Positions 28,468-61,567 are shown, counted from the stretch's first letter. The stretch is DNA of 64,000 nt from Eledone cirrhosa (GCA_964016885.1 OZ024746.1:75516001-75580000), one strand, 5' to 3'. The notes: generated by a model not told the origin, from the sequence alone. Made by a program: numbers and translations.

Positions 28468-28652
28468 TTGGCGGTGGATTGGCAGTATCGGTAGAGGGTC
28501 GGACGCCATGCTTTCCAGCATAGTTACGTCCCTTTACGATCTGAGTTCAAATCCCGCCGAGGTTGACTTTGCCTTTCATCCTTACGGGGTCGATAAAATA
28601 AAGTACCAGTAATGCACTGGTAATTGCTGGCCTTGTGCCTAAAGTAGAAACA
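28468..28652 (+). mobile_element. tRNA-derived SINE
   Basis: Same family as 6231-6414. GTTATTTACAATAGA is repeated on both sides. Confidence 0.9.
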
Positions 28653-29491
28653 GTTATTTACAATAGATTTCAATTTCCTCCCTTGATGTAACCTCCTCTT
28701 CCATTTTGACTCGAATTTGGAATTTTAAGCAAAGGGTCAAGGAAAATTGAATCAAATCAACCCCAGAACTCAACTCATACTCCATTGTATTGAGCCCGGA
28801 AGAATGAAAGACTAAGATGAGCTCAGCTGGATTTGAAGTCAGAACGTAAAGATCTTGAAGAAATCATTTCTATGACGCTCAAGCGATTCCTCCAATCCAC
28901 CACCCTCTAATCACTTCAATTTCGTTCCAATTGACTCGTAGGGGACTGAGGCCGGTATTCTTACATTACTTTAGCTTTTACGGTGGATTGGCAGAGTTGT
29001 TAGAGCGTCAGGCAAATACTTACCAGTATTTGTTCCGGCTCTTTACGTTCTGAGTTCAAATCCCGCTGAGGTTACAGGGTCGATAAAATAAAGTACCAGT
29101 AATGCACTGGGGGTCGATTTAATCGACTTTCCTCTTCCCAAAAAAATTGTTGGCCTTGTGCCTAAATCAGAAACTATTATTTTAGCTTTTACATTACGCA
29201 ATGTCATTCAGTGATAAATAAATAAATGAATACACTGTTTGTATGGTATAGAAAATGTTATAGTACGTTGAATTTTACTCTAATGTTGGCTGAGGTTTGA
29301 AAGTATCACGGCTAACCATTGTCAAATAGGCTGTGTACCAGTGAGAAACCTGGCAGTATGTATTTATATTGAAATAATTATTTCTCCGACAATTCACCAT
29401 GAGAAATATCTTGTTATCGCCAATAAAATATGTGTGAATTGGTTATTCTCTGGGTGTGTGAAAATAAAATATTGATACTGATATATATATA

Positions 29492-31820: not shown

Positions 31821-33950
31821 TGGTGGCTGCCAACTCGTTTTCGAGTACGGCCACTACTTTATATCCATGTAGGAGAAGCCCTACCGATGCACTGAACGAG
31901 TGTGACTTCTTAGTCCAGCCAGTGACTTGAAAACTCTGGTACAAACACTACACTTGTGACAATTATTGACACATAGTGCTGGCCCCATGGTAAAAGAAGA
32001 ACATACATACATACATACATACATACATACATACATACATACTTGTGTGTGAAATGCGTTTTTTTTTTATTCTGTACATATGAGCATGTACGCATAATTC
32101 TATAAATATGGGCATACATGTGTATGTATATTATTACAGCTGGCTGTGTATAGGCATGTGTACATATGTATGCACACATGCATCTGATGTATATATATAT
32201 ATATATATATATAATGTACATTCATATATATGCGTATATATACATATTGGTGTCTATACGCACAGTAAATATGTGGCTTGTGCTTATGCTTACGCTATCT
32301 ACATATCGTCAAGTACATTTACTTATATAGAAGCACATACGCATTTACACATACATACATGTATACATATATACTTGCATACATACATATATATATGGTG
32401 GCTGCCAACTCGTTTTCGAGTACGGCCACTACTTTATATCCATGTAAGAGAACTCCTACCGATGCGCTGAACGAGTGTGACTTTTTAGTCCAGCCAGCGA
32501 CTTGAAAACTCTGGTACAAACACTACACCTGTGACAATTATTGACACATAGTGCTGGGCCCATGGTACCATGTGACGACAAGTGCAGAGAGATCTCCAGA
32601 TATAAAGCAATGCCTGTGCCGTGAAGCTTTTATAGTGAGCAAAGGCACTGCACAAAGCCAGTCCCACTCTCTTAACCAAGATGATATTTACCAAAAAGAA
32701 GAACAAATCAACATCATTGGATACCATTAGTGTTGCAGGTGTTATATCAGAGTTTTCCTTCTCCTAGAATTCTGCCTTGACAAAGGCTAAGGGGTCATCT
32801 CTCCCGGTGATTTTGGATGGCCATTGACTCTTAAGAGCTTCCTTTCCCTTTGACAGGTTTTGTTTTTAGTCCTGCAGGATGTCCAAAGTCACCCTCCTCA
32901 CCAAGAAACCTTGGTGGGGTTGCCAGTTTAGTCGCCAATGACCCGACCATGAGACAGGTTGTACTGGGATACATGTTACCAGTAGCACCAATTGGTGAGC
33001 TGACATACATACATACATGGTGGCTGCCAACTCGTTTTCGAGTACGGCCACTACTTTATATCCATGTAGGAGAACCCCTACCGATGCGCTGAACGAGTGT
33101 GACTTTTTAGTCCAACCAGCGACTTGAAAACTCTGGTACAAACACTACACTTGTGACAATTATTGATACATAGTGCTGGGCCCATGGTACCATGTGACAA
33201 CAAGTGCAGAGAGATCTCCAGATATAAAGCAATGCCTGTGCCGTGAAGCTTTTATAGTGAGCAAAGGCACTGCACAAAGCCAGTCCCACTCTCTTAACCA
33301 AGATAATATTTACCAAAAAGAAGAACAAGTCAACATCCTTGGATACCATCAGGGTTGCAGGTGTTATATCAGAGTTTTCCTTCTCCTAGAATTCTGCCTT
33401 GACAAAGGCTAAGGGGTCATCTCGCCCGGTGATTTTGGATGGCCATTGACTCTTAAGAGCTCCTTTGCCCTTTGACAGGTATTGTTTTTAGTCCTGCAGG
33501 ATGTCCAAAGTCACCCTCCTCACCAAGAAACCTTGGTGGGGTTGCCAGTTTAGTCGCCAATGACCCGACCATGAGACAGGTTGTACTGGGATACATGTTA
33601 CCAGTAGCACCAACTGCTGACCTGACATATATAGATACATACATACATGCATACATACATACATGCATGTACAGATACATACATGTATAGATACATACAT
33701 ACATGCATACATACATACATACATACATACTTGCATGCATACATACTTGCATGCATGTATGGTGGCTGCCAACTCGTTTTCGAGTACGGCCACTACTTTA
33801 TATCCATGTAGGAAAACCCCTACCGATGCGCTGAACGAGTGTGACTTTTTAGTCCAGCCAGCGACTTGAAAACTCTGGCACAAACACCACACCTGTGACA
33901 ATTATTGACACATAGTGACGGGCCCATGATACCATGTGACGACAAGTGCA
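31821..33950 (-). mobile_element. Tandem cluster of non-autonomous RTE derivatives: complete ~610-bp copies at 32396-33004 and 33018-33626, truncated copies at 31821-31991 and 33760-33950
   Basis: RTE 5'-UTR-like motif GGAGAAGGAAAACTCTGA fused to an ORF2 terminal zinc finger [23 protein letters not shown]. (TGTA)n-like tails. Confidence 0.85.
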
Positions 33951-35860: not shown

Positions 35861-36007
35861 GATGATCTCGTTGATGGTTGAGTGGAAGCTGTATGATCTG
35901 CAGGATGTATATATGGGTACATAGATGCATTGGTGAAGGGGTGGATGGTTGTATGATTGGATTACCAGGTTGATAGGTGAATGGGCTGGTGTGTTGTTGG
36001 ACGTTTG

Positions 36008-36550
36008 GATGGTTGAGTAGAGGGTTCATGGGTAGGTGGATGGTTGGATGAAGTGGTGGATGGTTGAGTAGGTGGTTCATGGGTAGGTGGATGGTTGGAT
36101 GAAGTGGTGGATGGTTGAGTAGATGGTTCATGGGTAGGTGGATGGTTGGATGAAGTGGTGGATGGTTGAGTAGAGGGTTCATGGGTAGGTGGATGGTTGG
36201 ATGAAGTGGTGGATGGTTGAGTAGGTGGTTCATGGGTAGGTGGATGGTTGGATGAAGTGGTGGATGGTTGAGTAGATGGTTCATGGGTAGGTGGATGGTT
36301 GGATGAAGTGGTGGATGGTTGAGTAGAGGGTTCATGGGTAGGTGGATGGTTGGATGAAGTGGTGGATGGTTGAGTAGAGGGTTCATGGGTAGGTGGATGG
36401 TTGGATGAAGTGGTGGATGGTTGAGTAGAGGGTTCATGGGTAGGTGGATGGTTGGATGAAGTGGTGGATGGTTGAGTAGAGGGTTCATGGGTAGGTGGAT
36501 GGTTGGATGAAGTGGTGGATGGTTGAGTAGAGGGTTCATGGGTAGGTGGA
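36008..36550. repeat. 51-bp minisatellite, about 10.5 copies
   Basis: Unit GGATGGTTGAGTAGAGGGTTCATGGGTAGGTGGATGGTTGGATGAAGTGGT. Confidence 0.95.
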
Positions 36551-36939
36551 ATGTTGGCGCGTTTCGGGAGAAATGCGTGAGGGTGTATGGAGAAAAGTGT
36601 TAGGAATATGTGTAGTAGAAGTTGTGAATTTTTCGACTAGATAGATAGATAGATAGACAGACAGGCAAACAGATAGATAGGTAGATAGATAGATAGATAG
36701 ATAGATAAATTTCTATTTATTTGCCACGAGGGCACAAAAGAAGGGGACATTTACACAGTGGGGGAGTTTACATAAATCGAGTAAAGAAAAAAGGAATAAC
36801 AATAATAATATAACAATAAAAAGTCCTCAAAAGGGAGGGGGCGTGTTGGGGATTGCACATACCCCCGAAAAGTGTGCAACTCTTTTCGCGGAGGAAGCCC
36901 AGAGAGGAGGCGCTCCCCCTTTCCTCTTCACTTCTTCAC

Positions 36940-39900
36940 CTACAGAACAATGTAGAGAGAAGGCCCATTTACACGGGCCATTCTCGCTTCTTTCACCCAC
37001 CTTTCATAAAACTGTCTGGGACCAAGCACTTCTCTCTCCATCCTGATCCTTCTTCCGAAGTGGTATCGGAAGAAGTAAACCAGGTGATGGCCGGAGAGAA
37101 AGTCACCCGACCTCAGACCTTTCAGGCGCGTCCACCACACAACCTCTTTCATCATGGCTATTACGCACAGAAAGACCGCCTCTGCTTCATTTCTGAAGGG
37201 AGGAGGCGGCTTGATGTTCACCACAGACTCGGCGGTTAATCGAATCGGCGCCACACGCGACAGCAGTCGTTCGACGTAGCCCCACAGATCGGCAACGCCC
37301 GGGCAGTGTACCAGTGCATGCGCAACGGTTTCCTCGTCGCGCACGCATCTGGGACAGATCTTTTTCGCGGGATCCCTGCCCGGGCGCCCGTGTCTGTAGA
37401 GCTTTTCTCGAACGGGCAGAGCCCCCCGGTAACACTGCCAGGCTAGGGACCTCTGGAAGTTGTCCATGGGTCCCGGGCCGAAAGTTCTACCGAACAGGCT
37501 GGCCAGTTCGTCCTCCTCCATGCCTAGCGACTCTCCAAGGGTGTCGTCGCCCCTGCTAGCCACCAACCCTCTATAGAATGTCGAGGTGGATTCTCCACTG
37601 ACAGTCGGGTCCGCTTGCCAGATAGCCGTGAGCGCCTGGGCACACTCAGTGTGCCAGTTGCCCAGTTTTCTCGGTCTTTGCTTCACCCAGGATTGCAGTT
37701 CGGTGAGCGAGACGAGCTGTGGGAAGGCTCGCCTCACAAACGGGGCCCACACCGGCTGACCGTTGAGGAATACCTGTAGATGCCGTAGCCTCAATGCGTG
37801 CCTACGCATCAACAGCCACGGCATACCCAGCCCTCCTTTCGAAGGGTGCTGGCAGCAGATGGATCTCCTCACCATGGGAGGCCGCTTCTTCCAGAGGAAC
37901 TGGAAGAGCATGCGTTCCATGATGGTGAGCTTTTCCTTGGGGCAAGGCACGACGGTCAGGCGGTAGTAGATGACGGACGCTATGTAAGCGTTCGTCACCT
38001 CCGCCCGACCTTTCAGTGATAGTTTGCACTTGGCCCACTTCTGGGTCAGCGCAAACACCCTGCTCGTCACCTCGCCCCAATTCTTCTCCACCTGGAGGTC
38101 CGGTCCGAACCAGACCCCGAGCAGCTTCACCGGGCCCTCCGTCCACCGCCCGACGACACCGTCTAACGGCATCGGTTTGCCCCTCCACGTTCCGAGTTGC
38201 AAACCGACTGACTTGTCCTGGTTCAGCTTAGCCCCCGTCAGCCTTTCGTATTCCTCCAGTAGGGTGGCGATCGCCCCGATTTCCGAGGCGTCCGCCACCA
38301 TTACTGTTACGTCGTCGGCATAGGCCGAGACCGCTTTGTGCAATCCCGGTTCCAGGGGTATGCCCCGCAGCAACTCCAACTTCCGCAGCAGTGGCTCGAG
38401 AGTCAATACGTACAGAAGGGAGGAGAGGGGGCACCCCTGTCTGATGGATCGGGTGATTTGAAACGGCTCCGAGAGGTAGCCGTTTACTTTAATCCTAGAG
38501 TAGATGTTGCCACTGTGCATGGCAGAAATCCAGCCCCTGAAAACGGGTCCGAAGCCCGCCGCCGCTAGCACCGCATCCAGGTAACCATGGTCGACCCTAT
38601 CGAACGCCTTAGATTGATCCAAGTTGATCAGGGCCCCACCAAAGCCGGGTTCGTAGCCAACCCTCTCTATGATGTATCGCATGAGGTGGAGGTTGTCGTG
38701 AATGGACCTGGACGGGATAGCGCATGTCTGCGCGTCTCCCACCAAACCACCCACCACAAGCGCCAACCTCTTCGCCAACACCTTGGCCAAAATCTGTAAC
38801 TCTGCATTCAGCAGAGTTATGGGCCTAAAGTTACTTAAGTCGTCCCCCTTGCTCTCGTCCTTCCTCACTAGCGTGACCACGCCCTTGGTCACAGAACAGG
38901 AAATTCTCCCGTTCTGTTGCCAGTTGCAATAGACAGCCTCGAGGAGTTCGGAGAACAAGACCGGCATAGCTAAATAAAGTTCGTATGGTAGACCATCGAG
39001 ACCCGGGGATTTGCGTCTGCTGCATTGGCTGAGCGCTTCCCCGATTTCAGTGGCTGTGATTGGCCCTTCGCAGCACTCCGCTTCGCCGCTCGAAAGACGC
39101 GGTAGACCGTCGAGGTATGGACCGAAGTCCACATCCCCGTCCGGCCCCCCGCCACCTCCGAACAGTCGAGCAAAGTGCCTTTGAAAGGTCTCGCACATTC
39201 GCTCAGGTTCAAGGATCACCCGTCCATCCTGGTCTCGCAAAGACCGAATGGTGGATTTAATCCCACTCTTGGCTTCTGTCACGCGGGCCCAGCTAACAGC
39301 TTTGGTCCCCTCGTTTCCTAAAGCACGTATTTTACTTCGGACAACGCAGCCTTCGTGCTTCGCGTCAAAGAACTGGCTCAATGCCGTTCTCGTCGCTAAC
39401 ACTCTGGCTACGTCTCCGCTCCTAATCGCCTCTTCTAGTTTATCTGTTAACTCCCTTTCCCTCCTATTTCTATTAGCCGCTAGTTCCTTACTGTAACCTA
39501 TCGAACTTACTCTAATCTCTCTCTTTAGAGATATCCACCACCTACTGTTGACGATCGCTCCCGTCAACCGCATCTTAACTAAGCTACTAATCCGGTTTCT
39601 GTAATCTTTCTTTGTCGGTAAGGACAAGTTCATCTTCCAGTAACCGGGACCCTGTCTATGCGTTCTATCAAGGTTGACCACGCAGGTCACTAATTTGTGA
39701 TCTGAATAGCCAACCATGATCAGTTCTGGACAACTAAATACGTCCCTATCCTTACTCCTAACCAAAAACCTATCTAGGTACGATCTAGATTGTCCACTGC
39801 GGTTTGCCCAGGTCCAGGTTGGCGCAGTTGGACAATCTAGTCGAAATCTATCGACCAGGTCGAATCGATCGAGTAACCCCTTGAGGCTGCTACACCCCCC

Positions 39901-40375
39901 CTCTATCGGGACATGCCCCTGCATAGTCCCAACGCGCATCTAGGATTCCATTCCAGTCCCCCACTAAAAGCAGGGAACGCGACGTTCCTAGAAAACTCTC
40001 CAGACGTTGGAAGAAGTCGGCTCTCTCCGCCCCGAAGGGAGCATAAAGACCGACCAGTCTGAAAGCCCCGCCTTCACCACCTCCGACGTCCAGCACCAGT
40101 AATCGACCCCCCGGGTCCGAGTGAACAATCTGTACGTCGAGAGTCAGACGTTTATCCAGCAGTACGGCAACTCCCCCCCCCCCCCCGCCTCCGGGTTGAC
40201 AGAGAGATGCGTGCATCTCAAAGTCATCGAAGGCGGGCGCCAGCTGTCTCACGCTGCTGATCCGACTCTCGCAAACAACCATCACATCTATACTTTGTGA
40301 CCTGAGGTCACTTAGAAGCTTTGCTTGCTTCCAAGCTGAGCTCAGGCCACGCGCGTTCAAACAGCCAACTCTCAA
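36940..40375 (-). CDS. ORF2: AP-endonuclease + reverse transcriptase + C-terminal zinc finger, with one frameshift at the C-run near 39895-39901
   Basis: EN motifs GCLNARGL, VCESR, GDWN, SYLDRFLV, SDH. RT motifs KSPGLDG, FRPITLLN, LDQSKAFDRVDH, QGCPLS, YADD. Zinc finger CPRC..ETVAHALVHC. Confidence 0.93.
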
Positions 40376-40380
40376 TTGAT

Positions 40381-42217
40381 CTATTTTGGTGTTGAAAGTG
40401 AAGAAAGAAAAGCACTTACCTCTCCGGGTTGCGTAATTTCCATGGCATCAGGTGTGTTGGGTGGAGGGATGTTTTGTGGTGGTGTGGGGGTACACGTGTG
40501 TGGTGGGGTTGGGGTATTTGGAGTTGTGTCAGGGAGAGGGGCGGTTATGGGGAAATCTTTCAAGAGGACGCGATTCAACGGTTTTAAACAGGGGGGGCTC
40601 ACGTCCCGTCTGAATTGTTCTTTTAAGGAACGATAAAGGTCCAGAGGGACCTTTATCATTTTTAAATGGGTGAAGTTCTCTGTTGAGATAAAGTTTGGCC
40701 CTTCGGTCTGCACCATAGGGTTATTGTTTATTAATTTAACCAGTTTTTTGTTTTCTTTATTTATATATGTGTATTGCAACGTCTTTTTTTGTGATGCTGT
40801 CAATGTTTCGGAGAGGGGAGGCGCAGATTTATTTTTGTTTGTTGAGGGTGGGGTGTTTTTGATTGGAGTTGGTGTCTGTGTGTGGGTTATTTGTGGTGTG
40901 CTGGGTGTGTGTTTTCTTTTTTTTCTTTTAACTTGTCTGAAGGCTTCTCCTCCTTCTTCTTCAGAAGTTGGGGGAAACTCTTCAGCGCTAGGTGGGAGGG
41001 ACGTGTTGTGTGGTTGTTTTTTTTTTGCGGGAGGGGTAGATTTGTTACTGTTTTTTTTATTATTTGTTTGGAATGGGTTTTGTGGTGGTGGTGGTGGTAA
41101 TGTTTGTGTCGTGCTTGTGGTTGGTGATGGTGGTGGTGATGTTTGTGTTGTGGTTGGTGGTGGTGATTTTTGTGTCGTGCTTGTGTTTGGTGCTGGTGGT
41201 GGTGATGTTTGTGTTGTGTTTGTGGTTGGTGGTGTTTGTATTTTGTTTGCTGTGTGTGGTATTAGTGTATTTTTGGAGGTGGGTGGTGCTGGTGTACTGT
41301 TTGTGGTGGGTGTGGGCAATAGTCCTTTTTGGGGGATACGTTTCGGGCAGTTAGCCTTAACGTGTCCCCTTTCCATGCATAAATAACATGCTGGTCTTCT
41401 CCCCTCTACAATTATGTCTATTGGGGTAAGGTCATCCAGCCAGATGCGATCCGGGATTTGTGCTATTCTTTCGGGCCTCATTTGGACTAGTATGTCGAGG
41501 CCCATTCCCAGGAACGCATCTCCAGTTGCCTTCCCCATTGACAGCATAGTGTCTTCGCCCATATCAATGAAGCCAGCAATAGCCCACCAGAAGTCCATTG
41601 TGGGCAGCATTGTTTTTACTTTTACTCTCTGTGTTCTTCTACCCATGTAGGAGGGATAGAAGCTATATGTTGTCGACGAGAGTGGGCTTAGGGAAAGCTT
41701 CTCCGCCGTTTCTTTGTCTCTTGTTAGGACCGAAATGCTGCCATAGAGTCGGTCCTTTCGTATGAAGAGAATATTCTTCATATAGTCTTTTAGGACTAAC
41801 TCTATTTCCATTTGGCTGGGCTGTGCTGGCTTTCTTGTCTGGTTCAGTATAGTTCTGTATATAACTGTGTTTTCTGCTCTGGCTTTCTTGAATTCTGGGG
41901 GGGGAGTTAATGGAAAACATTCCGTTCTCCCCCAAAACAATATGTTTCTTTGCTTCGGCCAGTTTTTCTCTGGCGGCAGTTAGGTCAATTGGTGTGTATG
42001 TAATGGATTGCTTTGTTTTCTGGGCGAAAGTTGCCCTGTCGTTATTTGTATTATTTTCTGTTTGTTTGTTTTCTGTTTGCTCATTTTCCTTAACATTTGT
42101 TTTTTCATTTTGTTTGTTTGTTTCAATGTCTAATTTTGTTGTAATTATTTTTTGTTCTTCAGACTTGGGGGGCGTGGCAGAGCTAATGGCAGACATGTCT
42201 GCCATCTTTTCCGCCAT
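40381..42217 (-). CDS. ORF1: gag-like nucleic-acid-binding protein, with one frameshift at the G-run near 41896-41905
   Basis: Starts MAEKMADMS, CCHC knuckle CYLCMERGHVKANC, Pro/Thr-rich C-terminus, basic patch KRKKRKH. Confidence 0.85.
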
Positions 42218-42418
42218 GCTGCCAAGAAAGAAATTTTTCGGCAAAAATAGATATTTATTTTACCCCCTAAAAAGGGGGTAAATGCAAAAATGTTTCCCTA
42301 AATAACAGGGGTTAGTGTTCCAAATGTGTTGCACTAAAAAATTTATCCGGTACTTACAATAGTAAGGGTAAATCCCGATGGAATAGCGGAGCCGATGCGA
42401 AGCGTGTCTTACTCTATC

Positions 42419-42458
<40 letters not shown>

Positions 42459-42459
<1 letters not shown>

Positions 42460-42797
42460 TTCTTTATTAGCCACAAGGGCGCAACAAGAAAGGGGACAAT
42501 ACAAAGACATGCCGGGGATTTTACATACAGTCGTGTAAAAAATATAAAAACAAACAATTTCAACAATCGAAATCCCCAATAGGGGGGAGGCGCCACAAAT
42601 GGGTTGTTTAATACCCCGTCGATAGAACAATCCTCAACTCGAGGAGCGTGTTGTGCAAGTGCTCCTTTCTTCCTTTTGCTCTCTTCCTCAACCTACAGGC
42701 TTATAAACAGAGAAGGCCCAATCACTCGGGCCATTTTCGCTTCATTCACCCACCTTTCAGTAAATTTACTGGGGTGCAGTGCCTCTCTCTCCACTTT
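42459..42797 (-). mobile_element. 5'-truncated Tx1 relative (3' end)
   Basis: Homologous to 36708-37040, flanked by (GATA)n. Confidence 0.9.
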
Positions 42798-42852
42798 CGA
42801 CTAGATAGATAGATAGACAGACAGGCAAACAGATAGTTAGGTAGATAGATAA

Positions 42853-42906
<54 letters not shown>

Positions 42907-42907
<1 letters not shown>

Positions 42908-43220
42908 TGTTTCTTTATTAGCCACAGGGGCACAAAAGAAGGGGACAAATACAAAGGGGGAAGTTTACATACAATAAAAACGTGTAAAATGTTATCACAA
43001 ATGCAATTTAAAAAGTTAGTCGATTTTCCCCAATAGAGGGAGACAGTTTATATGGGTAACACATACCCCCGAAAAAATTTGCAACCCTCATCTCCAGGAG
43101 TACGAAGAGTTTGTACTCCTTTCCTCTCCTCCTCCTTTTCCTCAACCTACAGGCTGATATAGAGAGAAGGCCCATTCACTCGGGCCATTCTCGCCACTTT
43201 CACCCACCTTTCATAAAACT
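42907..43220 (-). mobile_element. 5'-truncated Tx1 relative (3' end)
   Basis: Shares GAGAAGGCCCATT...CACCCACCTTTCATAAAACTG with the full-length copy, flanked by (GATA)n. Confidence 0.9.
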
Positions 43221-43237
43221 GATAGATAGATAGATAA

Positions 43238-43294
<57 letters not shown>

Positions 43295-43295
<1 letters not shown>

Positions 43296-43568
43296 TTCTT
43301 TATTTGCCAAAAGGGTGCACAAGATATGGGACAATACAAGGACATACGGCGGGGATTTTACATACAATCATGTAAAAAGAGTAAAATTATAACATAAAAA
43401 ATTTAACAATCGAAATCCCCAATAGAGGGGAGGCTTTACAACTGGGTTGTTTTACACTCCGTAGATAGAACAACCCTCAACTCCAGGAGCATGTTTTGCA
43501 AGTGCTCCTTTCTTCTCTTCCCTCTCTTCCTCAACCTACAGATTTATATACAAAGAAGGCCCAATCAC
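43295..43568 (-). mobile_element. 5'-truncated Tx1 relative (3' end)
   Basis: Same 3' UTR family, with (GATA)n on both sides. Confidence 0.9.
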
Positions 43569-43623
<55 letters not shown>

Positions 43624-43666
43624 GAAGGTATGTAAGTATATATCTATATATATATATATATATATA

Positions 43667-43776
<110 letters not shown>

Positions 43777-45161: not shown

Positions 45162-45340
45162 AGATGTTATATGTTCTGGCTTGTTACACTTGTTACACTT
45201 GTCAGTGTATGTCCTTCGGTGCCTTGATGAACTTGCCGAAGGTACCGAAGTATAGGAGGAAGGGTTGTTAAACTGAGCAACCTATTATGTCCACATATAC
45301 ACACACATACACACACACACACATTATATATACACACATA

Positions 45341-45526
45341 GGGCGGTGAATTGGCAGTATCGGTAGAGGGTCGGACGCCATGCTTTCTAGCATAGTTACG
45401 TCCCTTTACGATCTGAGTTCAAATCCCGCCGAGGTTGACTTTGCCTTTCATCCTTACGGGGTCGATAAAATAAAGTACCAGTAATGCACTGGGTAATTGC
45501 TGGCCTTGTGCCTAACGTAGAAACAA
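45341..45526 (+). mobile_element. tRNA-derived SINE
   Basis: Same family as 6231-6414. Confidence 0.9.
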
Positions 45527-45541
45527 TTATATATACACACA

Positions 45542-46365: not shown

Positions 46366-47065
46366 TTATATTTATATTTATATTTATATAATCTGCTGGT
46401 TGTTTTGAAAAGTCTAGTAATAAATACAGAGTTGAGTCTTTCTGTGTGAGCTTGGTTACGCGTATGTGTGTGTGTGTGTGTGTGTGTGTGCATGTCTATG
46501 CATGTCTATGCATGTGTGTGCATGTGTGTGTAAAAGAGAGAGAGAGGAGAACCAGGTTGACTGTTATGGAATGAGGGGGGGGTAATGACGTCTGAGAGTT
46601 AGTGACTGGAACAATGACGACCAAGAGTGGCTACCATAGTTTAAATAGATTCCACCAAGAGATAAAATCACATTAAAAACATGGAATGACGCAACATCTT
46701 ATTCGTTTCAGCTGTGTTCATTATACAATTATACACACAGCAGATATCTACCTGAGATATGTTAAGAGAGACACTGTCACAGCTACTCGTGCTGAAGTCA
46801 TCCCTAATATTACGTTGAAAACATAAGACTTTGTATCGTAATACTAGTGGCTCCACTTCTGTAGTCTTCCTGTCTGTTCTGGGTAGATGCTTAGTTTATG
46901 ACACGGTGAGCATGCGTGCGTGTCTCGACGTGTGTGTATATGAATCGTTTATCTATATGTGTGTATGAGTATATGTGTATGTTTATATATGTTTGTGTGT
47001 GTCGCTCTAATTATTTTTGATGGTTTCTGCCAAATATATATATATATATATATATGTGGGGGGGG

Positions 47066-47125
<60 letters not shown>

Positions 47126-47218
47126 AAGCGTGAGTGTGCATATGTATTAATGTATGTATGTATGTATATGTATGTATGTATATATGTATGTATGTATATA
47201 TGTATGTATATATGTATA

Positions 47219-47650
47219 TTGGATACCATCAGGGTTGCAGGTGTTATAATCAGAATTTTCCTTCTCCTAGAATTCTGCCTTGACAAAGGCTAAGGGGTCA
47301 TCTCTCCCGGTGATTTTGGATGGCCATTGACTCTTAAGAGCTCCTTGTTCTTTTTGGTAAATATCATCTTGGTTAAGAGAGTGGGACTGGCTTTGTGCAG
47401 TGCCTTTGCTCACTATAAAAGCTTCACGGCACAGGCATTGCTTTATATCTGGAGATCTCTCTACACTTGTCGTCACATGGTACCATGGGCCCAGCACTAT
47501 GTGTTAATAATTGTCACAAGTGTAGTGTTTGTACCAGAGTTTTCAAGTCGCTGGCTGGACTAAAAAGTCACTCGTTCAACGCATCGGTAGGGGTACTCCT
47601 ACATGGATATAAAGTAGTGGCCGTACTCGAAAACGAGTTGGCAGCCACCA
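47219..47650. mobile_element. Non-autonomous RTE derivative with a 5' inversion
   Basis: 47219-47342 is the reverse complement of the segment that normally precedes 47345-47650. Confidence 0.85.
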
Positions 47651-47993
47651 TATATGTATATATGTACATCTGAAATATATATGTCCCAAAGTCATAATAA
47701 TCGTCGATCACTATAATAATAGTTGAGAAAATCTGGTAACGTACCCGTACTCCAGGAGTACTTCACCCGTTTTGTTTTGTTCGACTATTTTATATAGTGA
47801 TCAACTATTTTGTCGTCATTCGCATTGGAACACAAACAATTCAACTTTCAAAAGTTCCCAATGTTTCCAAAGTTAACTGCTTTGTTTAGAGAGAGAGATT
47901 GATAGATAGATGAATATATATATGCATATATATCCATGTATGTATATGTATGCATATGCATTCATACATACATATGCATACATATACATATCG

Positions 47994-50019: not shown

Positions 50020-50607
50020 AATAATTGTTTCTACTTTAGGCACAAGGCCAGCAATTATCCCTGTGCATTACTGGTACTTTATTTTATCGAACCCGTAAGG
50101 ATGGAAGGCAAAGTTAACCTCGGCAGGATTTGAATTCAGATCAGAAAGGAGCGTAACTCTGTGCTGCAAAGCCTGTTGTCCGACCCTCTACCGATACTGC
50201 CAAACCACCACCCTCTGTCTCTTAATAATTGTTTCTACTTTTGGCACAAGGCCAGCAAGTACCAGTGCAGTACTGGTACTTTATTTTATCGACCCCGTAA
50301 GGATGAAAGGCAAAGTCAACCTCGGCGGGGTTTGAACTCAGATCGTAAAGGGACGTAACTATGCTGGAAAGCATGGCGTCCGACCCTCTCTTAATAATGG
50401 CTTCTGCTTTATAGACAAAGCCAAAAATGTTGGGGAGGGGAAAGTTGATTCGATCGACCTCAGTGCATTACTGACACTTTATTTTATAAACCCCCTAAGT
50501 ATGACAGACAAAGCTTACCTTTGGGATTTGAACTCAGATCGTAAAGGGCCATAACTCTATTCCTCAAAGCATGGTGTCTGACACTCTACCGATACTGCCA
50601 ATCCACC
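50020..50607 (-). mobile_element. Three tandem tRNA-derived SINEs
   Basis: Copies start near 50022, 50226 and 50395. Confidence 0.9.
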
Positions 50608-55595: not shown

Positions 55596-56902
55596 TAATT
55601 GATTAATTGACTATTTCTTATTAACTTAAGGATTCGAAAATAAACCGTCATATAACTACACCCAGATATATATTTGATATTTTGATTGATTGATTATTTC
55701 TAGATAATTTAACGATTCGAAATTATTCATTCATAAAGCTATGTCCAAATATATATTTATATATATATTTTTGCATCATCTAACTATGCGCTGTTTATCC
55801 ACGACAACGTTACCGAAAAAAACAAAACATACCCAACTACCACTAAATCCTCTCTTATGCAAAAATAATTGTTTCTACTTTAGGCACAAGGCCAGCAATT
55901 ACCCAGTACATTACTGGTACTTTATTTTATCGACCCCGTAAGGATGAAAGGCAAAGTAAACCTCGGCGGGATTTGAACTCAGATCATAAAGGGACGTAAC
56001 TCTATGCTAGGAAGCATGGCGTCCAACCCTCTACCGATACTGCCAATCAACCACCTTTATGCAAAAATAATTGTTTCTACTTTTCGCACAAGACCAGCAA
56101 TTACCCAGTACATTACTGGTACTTTATTTTATCGACCCCGTAAGGATGAAAGGCAAAGTTAACCTCGGCGGGATTTGAACTCAGACTGTAAAGGGACGTA
56201 ACTATGCTGGAAAGCATGGCGTCCAATTTATTCTATAGAAATTATTGTTGTAAATAAAAATGCGTTTCTCTTATAGAAGTTGTGTGCTTTATTAAGAAAA
56301 CCTAATATTTCTTAAGTGTTTCATGTTATTTCAGGAATTTTTCAAATTAACTATTGGTAAATTTGATTCAGAACGTTTTTAAACATTTGTTGGGGTTGCC
56401 TGGATGTGTCCACATAAATTTCTTTAAGAAGAAAAAATAAAATGGTCGAGATGGGGAACAGTATACCGCTTTTGAACAGAATTAATCATTGCGTATACTA
56501 TGTTCCAACTTAAAGGTGTTTGAGGATCGCCTAACAGTTGTCCGATTGAGCTGAAATTTTGCACACCCGTGATTTTGTTAATTGAAACAGGATTAGTGGG
56601 TGGGAGCAACTTTCGGAAAATTACCTATTGCTAAGGGCCACCCTAATATATATATATATTATATAGATTATTCATGTTTATTTATATGTTAATCAATTTC
56701 TAGTTATTATAAAATGCTCGGACCTACTCGTTAGAATCTTAGAGCTTATTTTACGGGTGATATGGCGCATGTCTTTCTGGCATGACACCTATAATTTTGA
56801 TTCAGATTAAATTCATTTGATTTATCTTAATTTTGGATATAGATATATATATATATATATATGGAGGAAGTTATAGTTCACTTGAAGGATTGTGTAATAA
56901 GG

Positions 56903-60722: not shown

Positions 60723-60842
<120 letters not shown>

Positions 60843-60851
60843 TATATATAA

Positions 60852-60944
<93 letters not shown>

Positions 60945-60950
60945 CATACA

Positions 60951-61337
60951 TGGTGGCTGCCAACTCGTTTTCGAGTACGGCCACTACTTTATATCCATGT
61001 AGGAGAACCCCTACTGATACGCTGAACAAGTGTGACTTTTTAGTCCAGCCAGCGACTTGAAAACTCTGGTACAAACACTACACTTGTGACAATTATTGAC
61101 ACATAGTGCTGGGCCCATGGTATCATGTGACGACAAGTGCAGAGAGATATCCAGATATAAAGCAATGCCTGTGCCGTGAAGCTTTTATAGTGAGCAAAGG
61201 CACTGCACAAAGCCAGTCCCACTCTCTTAACCAAGATGATATTTACCAAAAAGAAGAACAAGTCAACATCATTGGATACCATCAGGGTTGCAGGTGTTAT
61301 ATCAGAGTTTTCCTTCTAGAATTCTGCCTTGACAAAG
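60951..61337 (-). mobile_element. 5'-truncated non-autonomous RTE derivative
   Basis: Homologous to 32396-32800, with (TACA)n flanks. Confidence 0.88.
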
Positions 61338-61475
61338 GCTAAGGGGTCATCTCTCCCACAAATACATATACATACATACATACATACATACATACATACA
61401 TACATACATACATACATACATACATGATCCTAAGAGGTCATCTCTCCCACAAATACACATACATACATACATACA

Positions 61476-61567
<92 letters not shown>

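Follow-up and report, generated by a model that had tools for sequence, protein, structure and literature searches.

Two ORFs, a CCHC knuckle in ORF1 and a C-terminal zinc-binding region in ORF2 are typical of Tx1 retrotransposons, and the endonuclease of Tx1L reportedly nicks its specific target in vitro; the Waldo, Mino and Dong elements belong to the R1 and R4 clades. Tx1 is placed inside the L1 clade (PMC3747384), and several of its members are directed to microsatellites: the teleost elements Kibi and Koshi target (TC)n and (TTC)n, respectively (PMC4494074, PMC3812793), and crocodilian families of the Tx1-1_Crp group target (TTCC)n/(TTTC)n, with the related SINEU-3 forming tandem insertions that sandwich a target duplication (PMC4494074). 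Other microsatellite-targeting non-LTR retrotransposons are Waldo in (ACAY)n, Mino in (AC)n and Dong in (TAA)n, none of them listed for GATA/TATC (PMC3812793). Surveys of octopus repeats describe L1-Tx1 elements as active or expanded, with no targets given in the sections concerned (PMC13282606, PMC8967140). No retrotransposon targeting GATA/TATC is reported in the literature searched; Repbase and Dfam, outside that search, could hold one. The TATC target described here and the pairing of TATC families with a sister family in ATT appear to be new; microsatellite targeting by Tx1 is already known.

The window, which is the whole stretch of 64,000 nucleotides of the Eledone cirrhosa genome that was analysed, contains at 36.7-43.6 kb four LINE pieces with homologous 3' ends, all on the minus strand and with GATA arrays in between (Table 1). 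Like Kibi and Koshi, these are APE-type LINEs in one microsatellite with the sense strand on the pyrimidine-rich strand (PMC4494074, PMC3812793), but the unit is TATC and the host an octopod. With the crocodilian Tx1 families they share a preference for a tetranucleotide microsatellite (PMC4494074); they differ in the unit and in being young families with intact copies (both ORFs are open in 9 of the 37 copies of family A whose 3' end was located).

Table 1. Features of the retrotransposon stack in window coordinates.
Feature	Position	Strand	Description
Degenerate GATA array	36631..36707	.	behind copy 1; holds one duplicate of the segment of at least 50 nt
Copy 1	36708..42420	-	full-length LINE, family A, 5.7 kb, without poly(A)
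ORF2 of copy 1	36940..40384	-	APE endonuclease, RT and zinc-binding domain
C-terminal zinc-binding region (Pfam zf-RVT)	37282..37449	-	E=2e-5, below cut-off
RT core (Pfam RVT_1)	38110..38844	-	E=4e-24
ORF1 of copy 1	40381..42217	-	intact copies encode about 611 aa; visible CX2CX4HX4C knuckle
(GATA)9	42421..42456	.	between copies 2 and 1
Copy 2	42457..42794	-	338 nt, 5'-truncated, family B (young)
GATA array	42795..42907	.	between copies 3 and 2; holds the other duplicate of the segment of at least 50 nt
Copy 3	42908..43220	-	313 nt, 5'-truncated, family C
GATA array	43221..43292	.	between copies 4 and 3
Copy 4	43293..43569	-	277 nt, 5'-truncated, family D (older)
(GATA)13	43570..43622	.	before copy 4

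The initial annotation had described one full-length and three mutually diverged, 5'-truncated copies on the minus strand, and the coordinates and pairwise identities (72-86% over the shared last ~270 nt) agree with it. It had also stated that the window holds no other copy, and searches by tblastn with ORF1/ORF2 and by blastn with the 3' UTR gave no related sequence in the window outside 36.7-43.6 kb; the two other short TATC/GATA arrays, at 2769 and 21769, are both without an element. Its placement of GATA at or next to every junction is borne out by the arrays that separate the copies, with a refinement at the 5' junction of copy 2: directly next to it are 9 bases outside the repeat, which belong to a degenerate segment of 50 nt or more that is repeated behind copy 1. 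This doubled segment around copies 2 and 1 is likely a long target-site duplication made by copy 2, and the likely order of insertion is copy 4 first, copies 3 and 2 next, and finally copy 1, which would have entered the tail of copy 2. The doubled segment would also fit an explanation in which the repeat is a tail plus a duplication or slippage product, no target preference exists, and the stack arose by local duplication, a process for which near-identical tandem pairs in the genome (L112/L113, 99.84%) provide precedent, but the divergence of the window copies from one another, each of which has closer relatives on other contigs, speaks against it.

Several other sequences were observed at or near the stack. 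The 5' junction of family A at 42415-42426 forms a short inverted repeat, TCTATC-TT-GATAGA. Folding of the 5' UTR is unremarkable (z=-1.26), and no ribozyme was found in 36500-43700 by an Rfam scan, which gave two chance matches only, far below the cut-off. Very homogeneous minisatellites occupy 36006-36557 (51-bp unit, 10.8 copies, 98%), separated by 80 bp from where the stack ends on its 3' side, and 25659-26304 (28-bp unit, 23 copies, 99%). A dispersed repeat of 400-650 bp with ACAT tracts lies at 19031-19428, 32334-33640, 47034-47682 and 60758-61536, in both orientations and with several copies 94-96% identical.

Each window copy was compared with its own genome (3.0 Gb), and the best 40 matches per search were taken, a sampling that is therefore skewed to young copies. 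Among these best 40 matches, the closest relatives of copies 1-3 are 99-100% identical and those of copy 4 are 86-94% identical; on this basis, copies 1-4 were assigned to four families, A-D. The single element of the initial annotation is thus replaced by a group of related families, four of which are represented here by one copy each. Three of the four families (A-C) are, by these identities, very young. All 40 of the family A genomic copies examined align to copy 1 at 97.6-99.7%, mostly over its whole length, and family B has an intact full-length natural copy (L210). Further related families, with ORF2 proteins roughly 65-87% identical to that of family A, adjoin these in head-to-tail trains. 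In 60 evenly spaced 10-kb stretches of the genome, matches to A, B or C (E<=1e-10), which include sister families, cover 9,949 of 600,000 bases. Variable 5' truncation, a fixed 3' end and target-site duplication, the hallmarks of target-primed insertion, are all present. The idea that copy 2 represents a short non-autonomous element was rejected, as the truncation point varies among its relatives, some of which are full-length.

The intact family A copy L096 has matches to Pfam Exo_endo_phos (E=2e-11) and RVT_1 (E=1e-23) that place an APE endonuclease N-terminal to the RT in ORF2; the zf-CCHC match in ORF1 (E=0.019), like the zf-RVT match in ORF2, is below the curated cut-off. Among solved structures, the closest relative is human L1 ORF2p (PDB 8uw3 and others), matched over residues 5-853 with E=4e-48 versus 2e-23 for R2. 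The likeness to human L1 extends to the EN-RT-zinc architecture, target-primed insertion, 5' truncation and duplications (PMC1950540), but unlike human and other mammalian L1, the elements here have no poly(A) tail, a target other than TTTT/AA, and a CCHC knuckle in ORF1. Among 20 clusters of relatives looked up, no protein is named Tx1 and the closest named protein is a hypothetical protein of Argonauta hians (64%), which together with the repeat landscape suggests an octopod host. Formal membership in Tx1, for which the criterion is that the RT groups with named Tx1 references and not with L1 (RTclass1), is likely; the rows of the RT tree built here are unnamed or hypothetical proteins.

Whether TATC is a target or a tail was judged from the flanks of genomic copies, with the same 60 stretches (600 kb) as background for TATC runs, in which the upstream-repeat rate is 0.23% for at least two units and 0.055% for at least three. 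Full-length family A copies have TATC directly upstream in 39/40 cases and GATC in 1/40, with at least two units in 39/40 and a reverse-orientation repeat in 0/40. At the other end, copy 1 terminates in AATAAATAGAAA plus TT and is followed by TATC, and the flank TTTATC follows AATAAATAGAAA in all 37 family A copies with a located end; full-length copies of families B and C, inspected by eye, come after TATC runs in 17/17 cases. Half of the full-length family A copies (20/40) sit behind the end of another element. The tandem pair L112/L113 has a 20-nt degenerate duplication and three extra TATC units (12 bases) upstream that are absent from the downstream target copy; the full-length RNA or slippage may therefore supply upstream TATC, and the 5' flanks of full-length copies are not independent evidence for the target.

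The 5' ends of truncated B and C copies cannot bring the repeat from the start of the RNA. The 80 B and C loci, less 17 full-length copies and 8 that were dropped (3 that ran off the locus, 2 with element sequence upstream, 1 duplicate locus and the window's own 2), provide 55 such copies; the 5' junctions of families D and F are too diverged for a tally. Within 30 nt upstream, at least two TATC units are found in 42/55 and at least three in 40/55, with the reverse orientation in 0/55, and removal of the 16 that follow the end of another element leaves 28/39 with at least two units. At the 3' junction, the target sequence opens with TATC in 49/55 copies and with TCTC in 1/55, unlike the (TC)n or (TTC)n insertion of Kibi and Koshi. 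The 13 copies that lack two upstream units were divided by eye into four whose duplication starts with TAT, four with a junction that holds roughly one unit, and five without upstream TATC. Where PMC4494074 recognizes target specificity if more than 20% of flanks are of one sequence type, the corresponding numbers here are 39/40 and 42/55. The initial annotation had allowed that the repeat could be only a 3' tail, in which case 5' flanks would be mostly something other than GATA; in both the full-length and the truncated sets the repeat is upstream of most copies, in one orientation. The explanation by tail, duplication and slippage gains something from the fact that tails expand and from L213, in which ~65 nt of repeat precede the unique part of the duplication, but a perfect upstream run that exceeds the downstream one by a unit or more, as seen in 17/55 truncated copies, is impossible from a tail plus duplication, and that explanation is very improbable. 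A real target preference for (TATC)n/(GATA)n, with the repeat not just a tail, is virtually certain. The specificity that the initial annotation proposed is therefore upheld as a strong flank preference with a short core, C/TATCT (the slash marking the nick), and not as a strict requirement, given the five truncated copies without upstream TATC. A dispersed repeat unrelated to the LINE was also seen to carry internal (TA)n(TATC)n between conserved flanks (L243:4320, L284:8503 and 8850).

The position of the nick was estimated from 13 target-site duplications with a readable end, hand-picked by eye from truncated copies. They span 7-17 bp if microhomology is excluded and 8-19 bp if it is counted, and 13/13 begin with TAT. 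The four bases upstream of the duplication are TATC in 7/13, compared with 78 of 1857 background TATCT sites (4%; p=3e-7), and end in C in 11/13, compared with 429 of 1857. Longer duplications also occur, such as 64 nt in L111 and the segment of at least 50 nt around window copies 2 and 1; occasional duplications of 50-80 nt, as opposed to the usual 7-19 bp, were noted in L111, in L213 and in the window at 36631-36683 / 42795-42855. Two mechanisms of target choice can be compared with these data. In one, pairing between RNA and DNA sets the target: the endonuclease is relaxed, extension is limited to nicks that can pair with the RNA's UAUC end, and arrays are favoured because they offer many registers. 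This mechanism predicts the fixed orientation equally well, and it suits the insertions into unique DNA, of which L003 and L010 have a match of only 3-5 nt and which, together with L193, need just a duplication that opens with TAT(CT). Pairing of the RNA with the primer, however, uses only bases downstream of the nick, so the skew to TATC upstream implicates the endonuclease, with the residual caveat that units may have been gained upstream by slippage once the element was in place. In addition, isolated TATCT outnumbers array-embedded TATCT by ~23:1 in the background, yet 42/55 truncated copies are in arrays. Target choice by RNA pairing is, on balance, unlikely. The endonuclease would then quite probably be the main determinant of the target, a role read from the flanks.

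Two sister families surfaced in the evenly spaced genome sample with a different repeat at their ends. Family F (L246, L288-L317) has an ATT-type 3' junction in 24/30 copies and TATC in 0/30. Family G (L318, L320-L342) has (ATT)n upstream in 20/20 full-length copies, TATC in 0/20, and ATT runs at the 3' end in all three of the 20 copies that were read whole. An RT tree with 32 rows places the TATC families together with the Argonauta protein and a single F row (94/89, not starred), and a well-supported G clade lies beside them; the F row (L246) is degraded, has less than half of its positions filled and sits on a long branch, and its placement was therefore disregarded. The endonuclease of G is 57-64% identical to that of A, as judged from two to three partly covering G copies, compared with 66-82% among TATC families. 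Endonuclease residues with a fixed difference between G and the TATC families are concentrated in the segment that immediately precedes the GGVAV motif, and one is in the beta-hairpin loop (NRSG versus NRIG), a loop that influences target choice by the L1 endonuclease (PMC1950540). The 3' repeat of the sister families changes along with the target, as choice by RNA pairing would also predict. Sister families that use another repeat weigh against passive accumulation, in which insertion is random and copies survive in microsatellite-rich regions of low recombination; this has been proposed for Drosophila Waldo near CA repeats (PMC3812793), and the E. cirrhosa genome is very rich in microsatellites, but one rare repeat is involved (7 arrays of at least 4 units per 600 kb), phase and orientation are fixed, and the association is already present in copies that are 99-100% identical. 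Such accumulation is the least credible of the explanations considered, hardly to be entertained. A SINE-like repeat of ~190 bp, with an end reading ...CTTGTGCC..AGAAACA plus ATTAT (17 ends found by one pattern), is abundant in the window (e.g., 6230-6420, 10003-10400, 28470-28660, 45340-45530, 50020-50390 and 55860-56225); from its similar 3' end, it is likely a non-autonomous partner of the ATT-type sister LINEs.

The stack is thus best interpreted, with good probability, as four LINEs of related families that prefer (TATC)n/(GATA)n and insert in one orientation, likely by means of an APE endonuclease that nicks the GATA strand. The endonuclease would read roughly TATC/TATCT and nick the GATA strand within the first bases of TAT, the exact bond not being resolvable. 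Target-primed reverse transcription would start at this nick, at the TATC/TATC step, from an RNA without poly(A) that probably ends in a few UAUC bases able to pair with the freed 3' end, and the second nick would be made 7-19 bp downstream or at times much further away. The full-length RNA probably starts inside the upstream array, so that a TATC leader or microhomology would aid 5' joining. Each insertion is predicted to duplicate and add repeat units, and later copies of any family would land at the junctions; because repeat is left on both sides of each insertion, copies would stack into mixed-family trains.

Relative to intact L096, the coding sequence of copy 1 has two frameshifts, each from a single added base (~41904 in ORF1, ~39901 in ORF2), and six added in-frame bases in the run 40173-40186; these homopolymer changes may be real or may be assembly errors. 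The open frames of the nine intact family A copies measure 625 and 1166 codons from stop to stop. The start position of ORF2 in family A is ATA, which overlaps the stop of ORF1 as A-TAG (40381-40384, minus strand) and is present in 36 of 37 copies, the other one not being located, whereas ORF2 begins with ATG in the examined copies of families B, C, E, E2 and G. SART1 has an overlapping stop-start of UAAUG, and family A resembles it in overlapping the ORF1 stop with the ORF2 start position but differs in that the overlap is A-UAG and AUA takes the place of AUG, its use as a codon being putative (PMC3894237). Family A ORF2 may be reached by reinitiation at AUA or by -1 slippage at the stop, or the element may be mobilised in trans. 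Use of the GTAAGT at the ORF1 end as a splice donor was rejected as a route to ORF2, as the nearest AG in family A would leave the ORF1 frame unchanged, and no AG precedes the ATG in families B and E2. A GTRAGT/GTAGGT motif is found near the end of ORF1 in every family examined, with or without the stop inside it. Donor-like GTAAGT/GTAGGT/GTGAGT occurs at ~40414-40419 and ~42349-42354 (minus strand), with homologous sites in L210, L198, L227, L225 and L341, and GTAAGT is present in the 5' UTR of families A, B and D; these motifs perhaps serve U1 binding. A tentative scenario, which is more doubtful than not, is that target choice has changed naturally within the octopod LINE radiation, families choosing (TATC)n or (ATT)n by means of a small number of loop residues together with repeats to match at either end of the RNA, and that the youngest TATC family expresses its ORF2 from AUA by stop-start coupling at A-UAG.

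The concept of microsatellite targeting is twenty years old, and the choice of microsatellite by APE-type retrotransposons has been described as poorly understood (PMC3812793). Young, intact TATC families beside a close ATT sister make target choice testable by swaps of domains and RNA ends, and the pair would, if the interpretation is true, constitute a retargetable system for insertion of DNA into harmless microsatellites. Because (GATA)n arrays are present in many animal genomes, a specific all-RNA insertion system would find many non-coding landing sites, with a precision limited by the 5/55 truncated copies that have no upstream TATC. In the genome of E. cirrhosa itself, 3 of the 7 arrays of at least 4 GATA units in the 600-kb sample touch element sequence, and the element families also shape the GATA repeats of their host.
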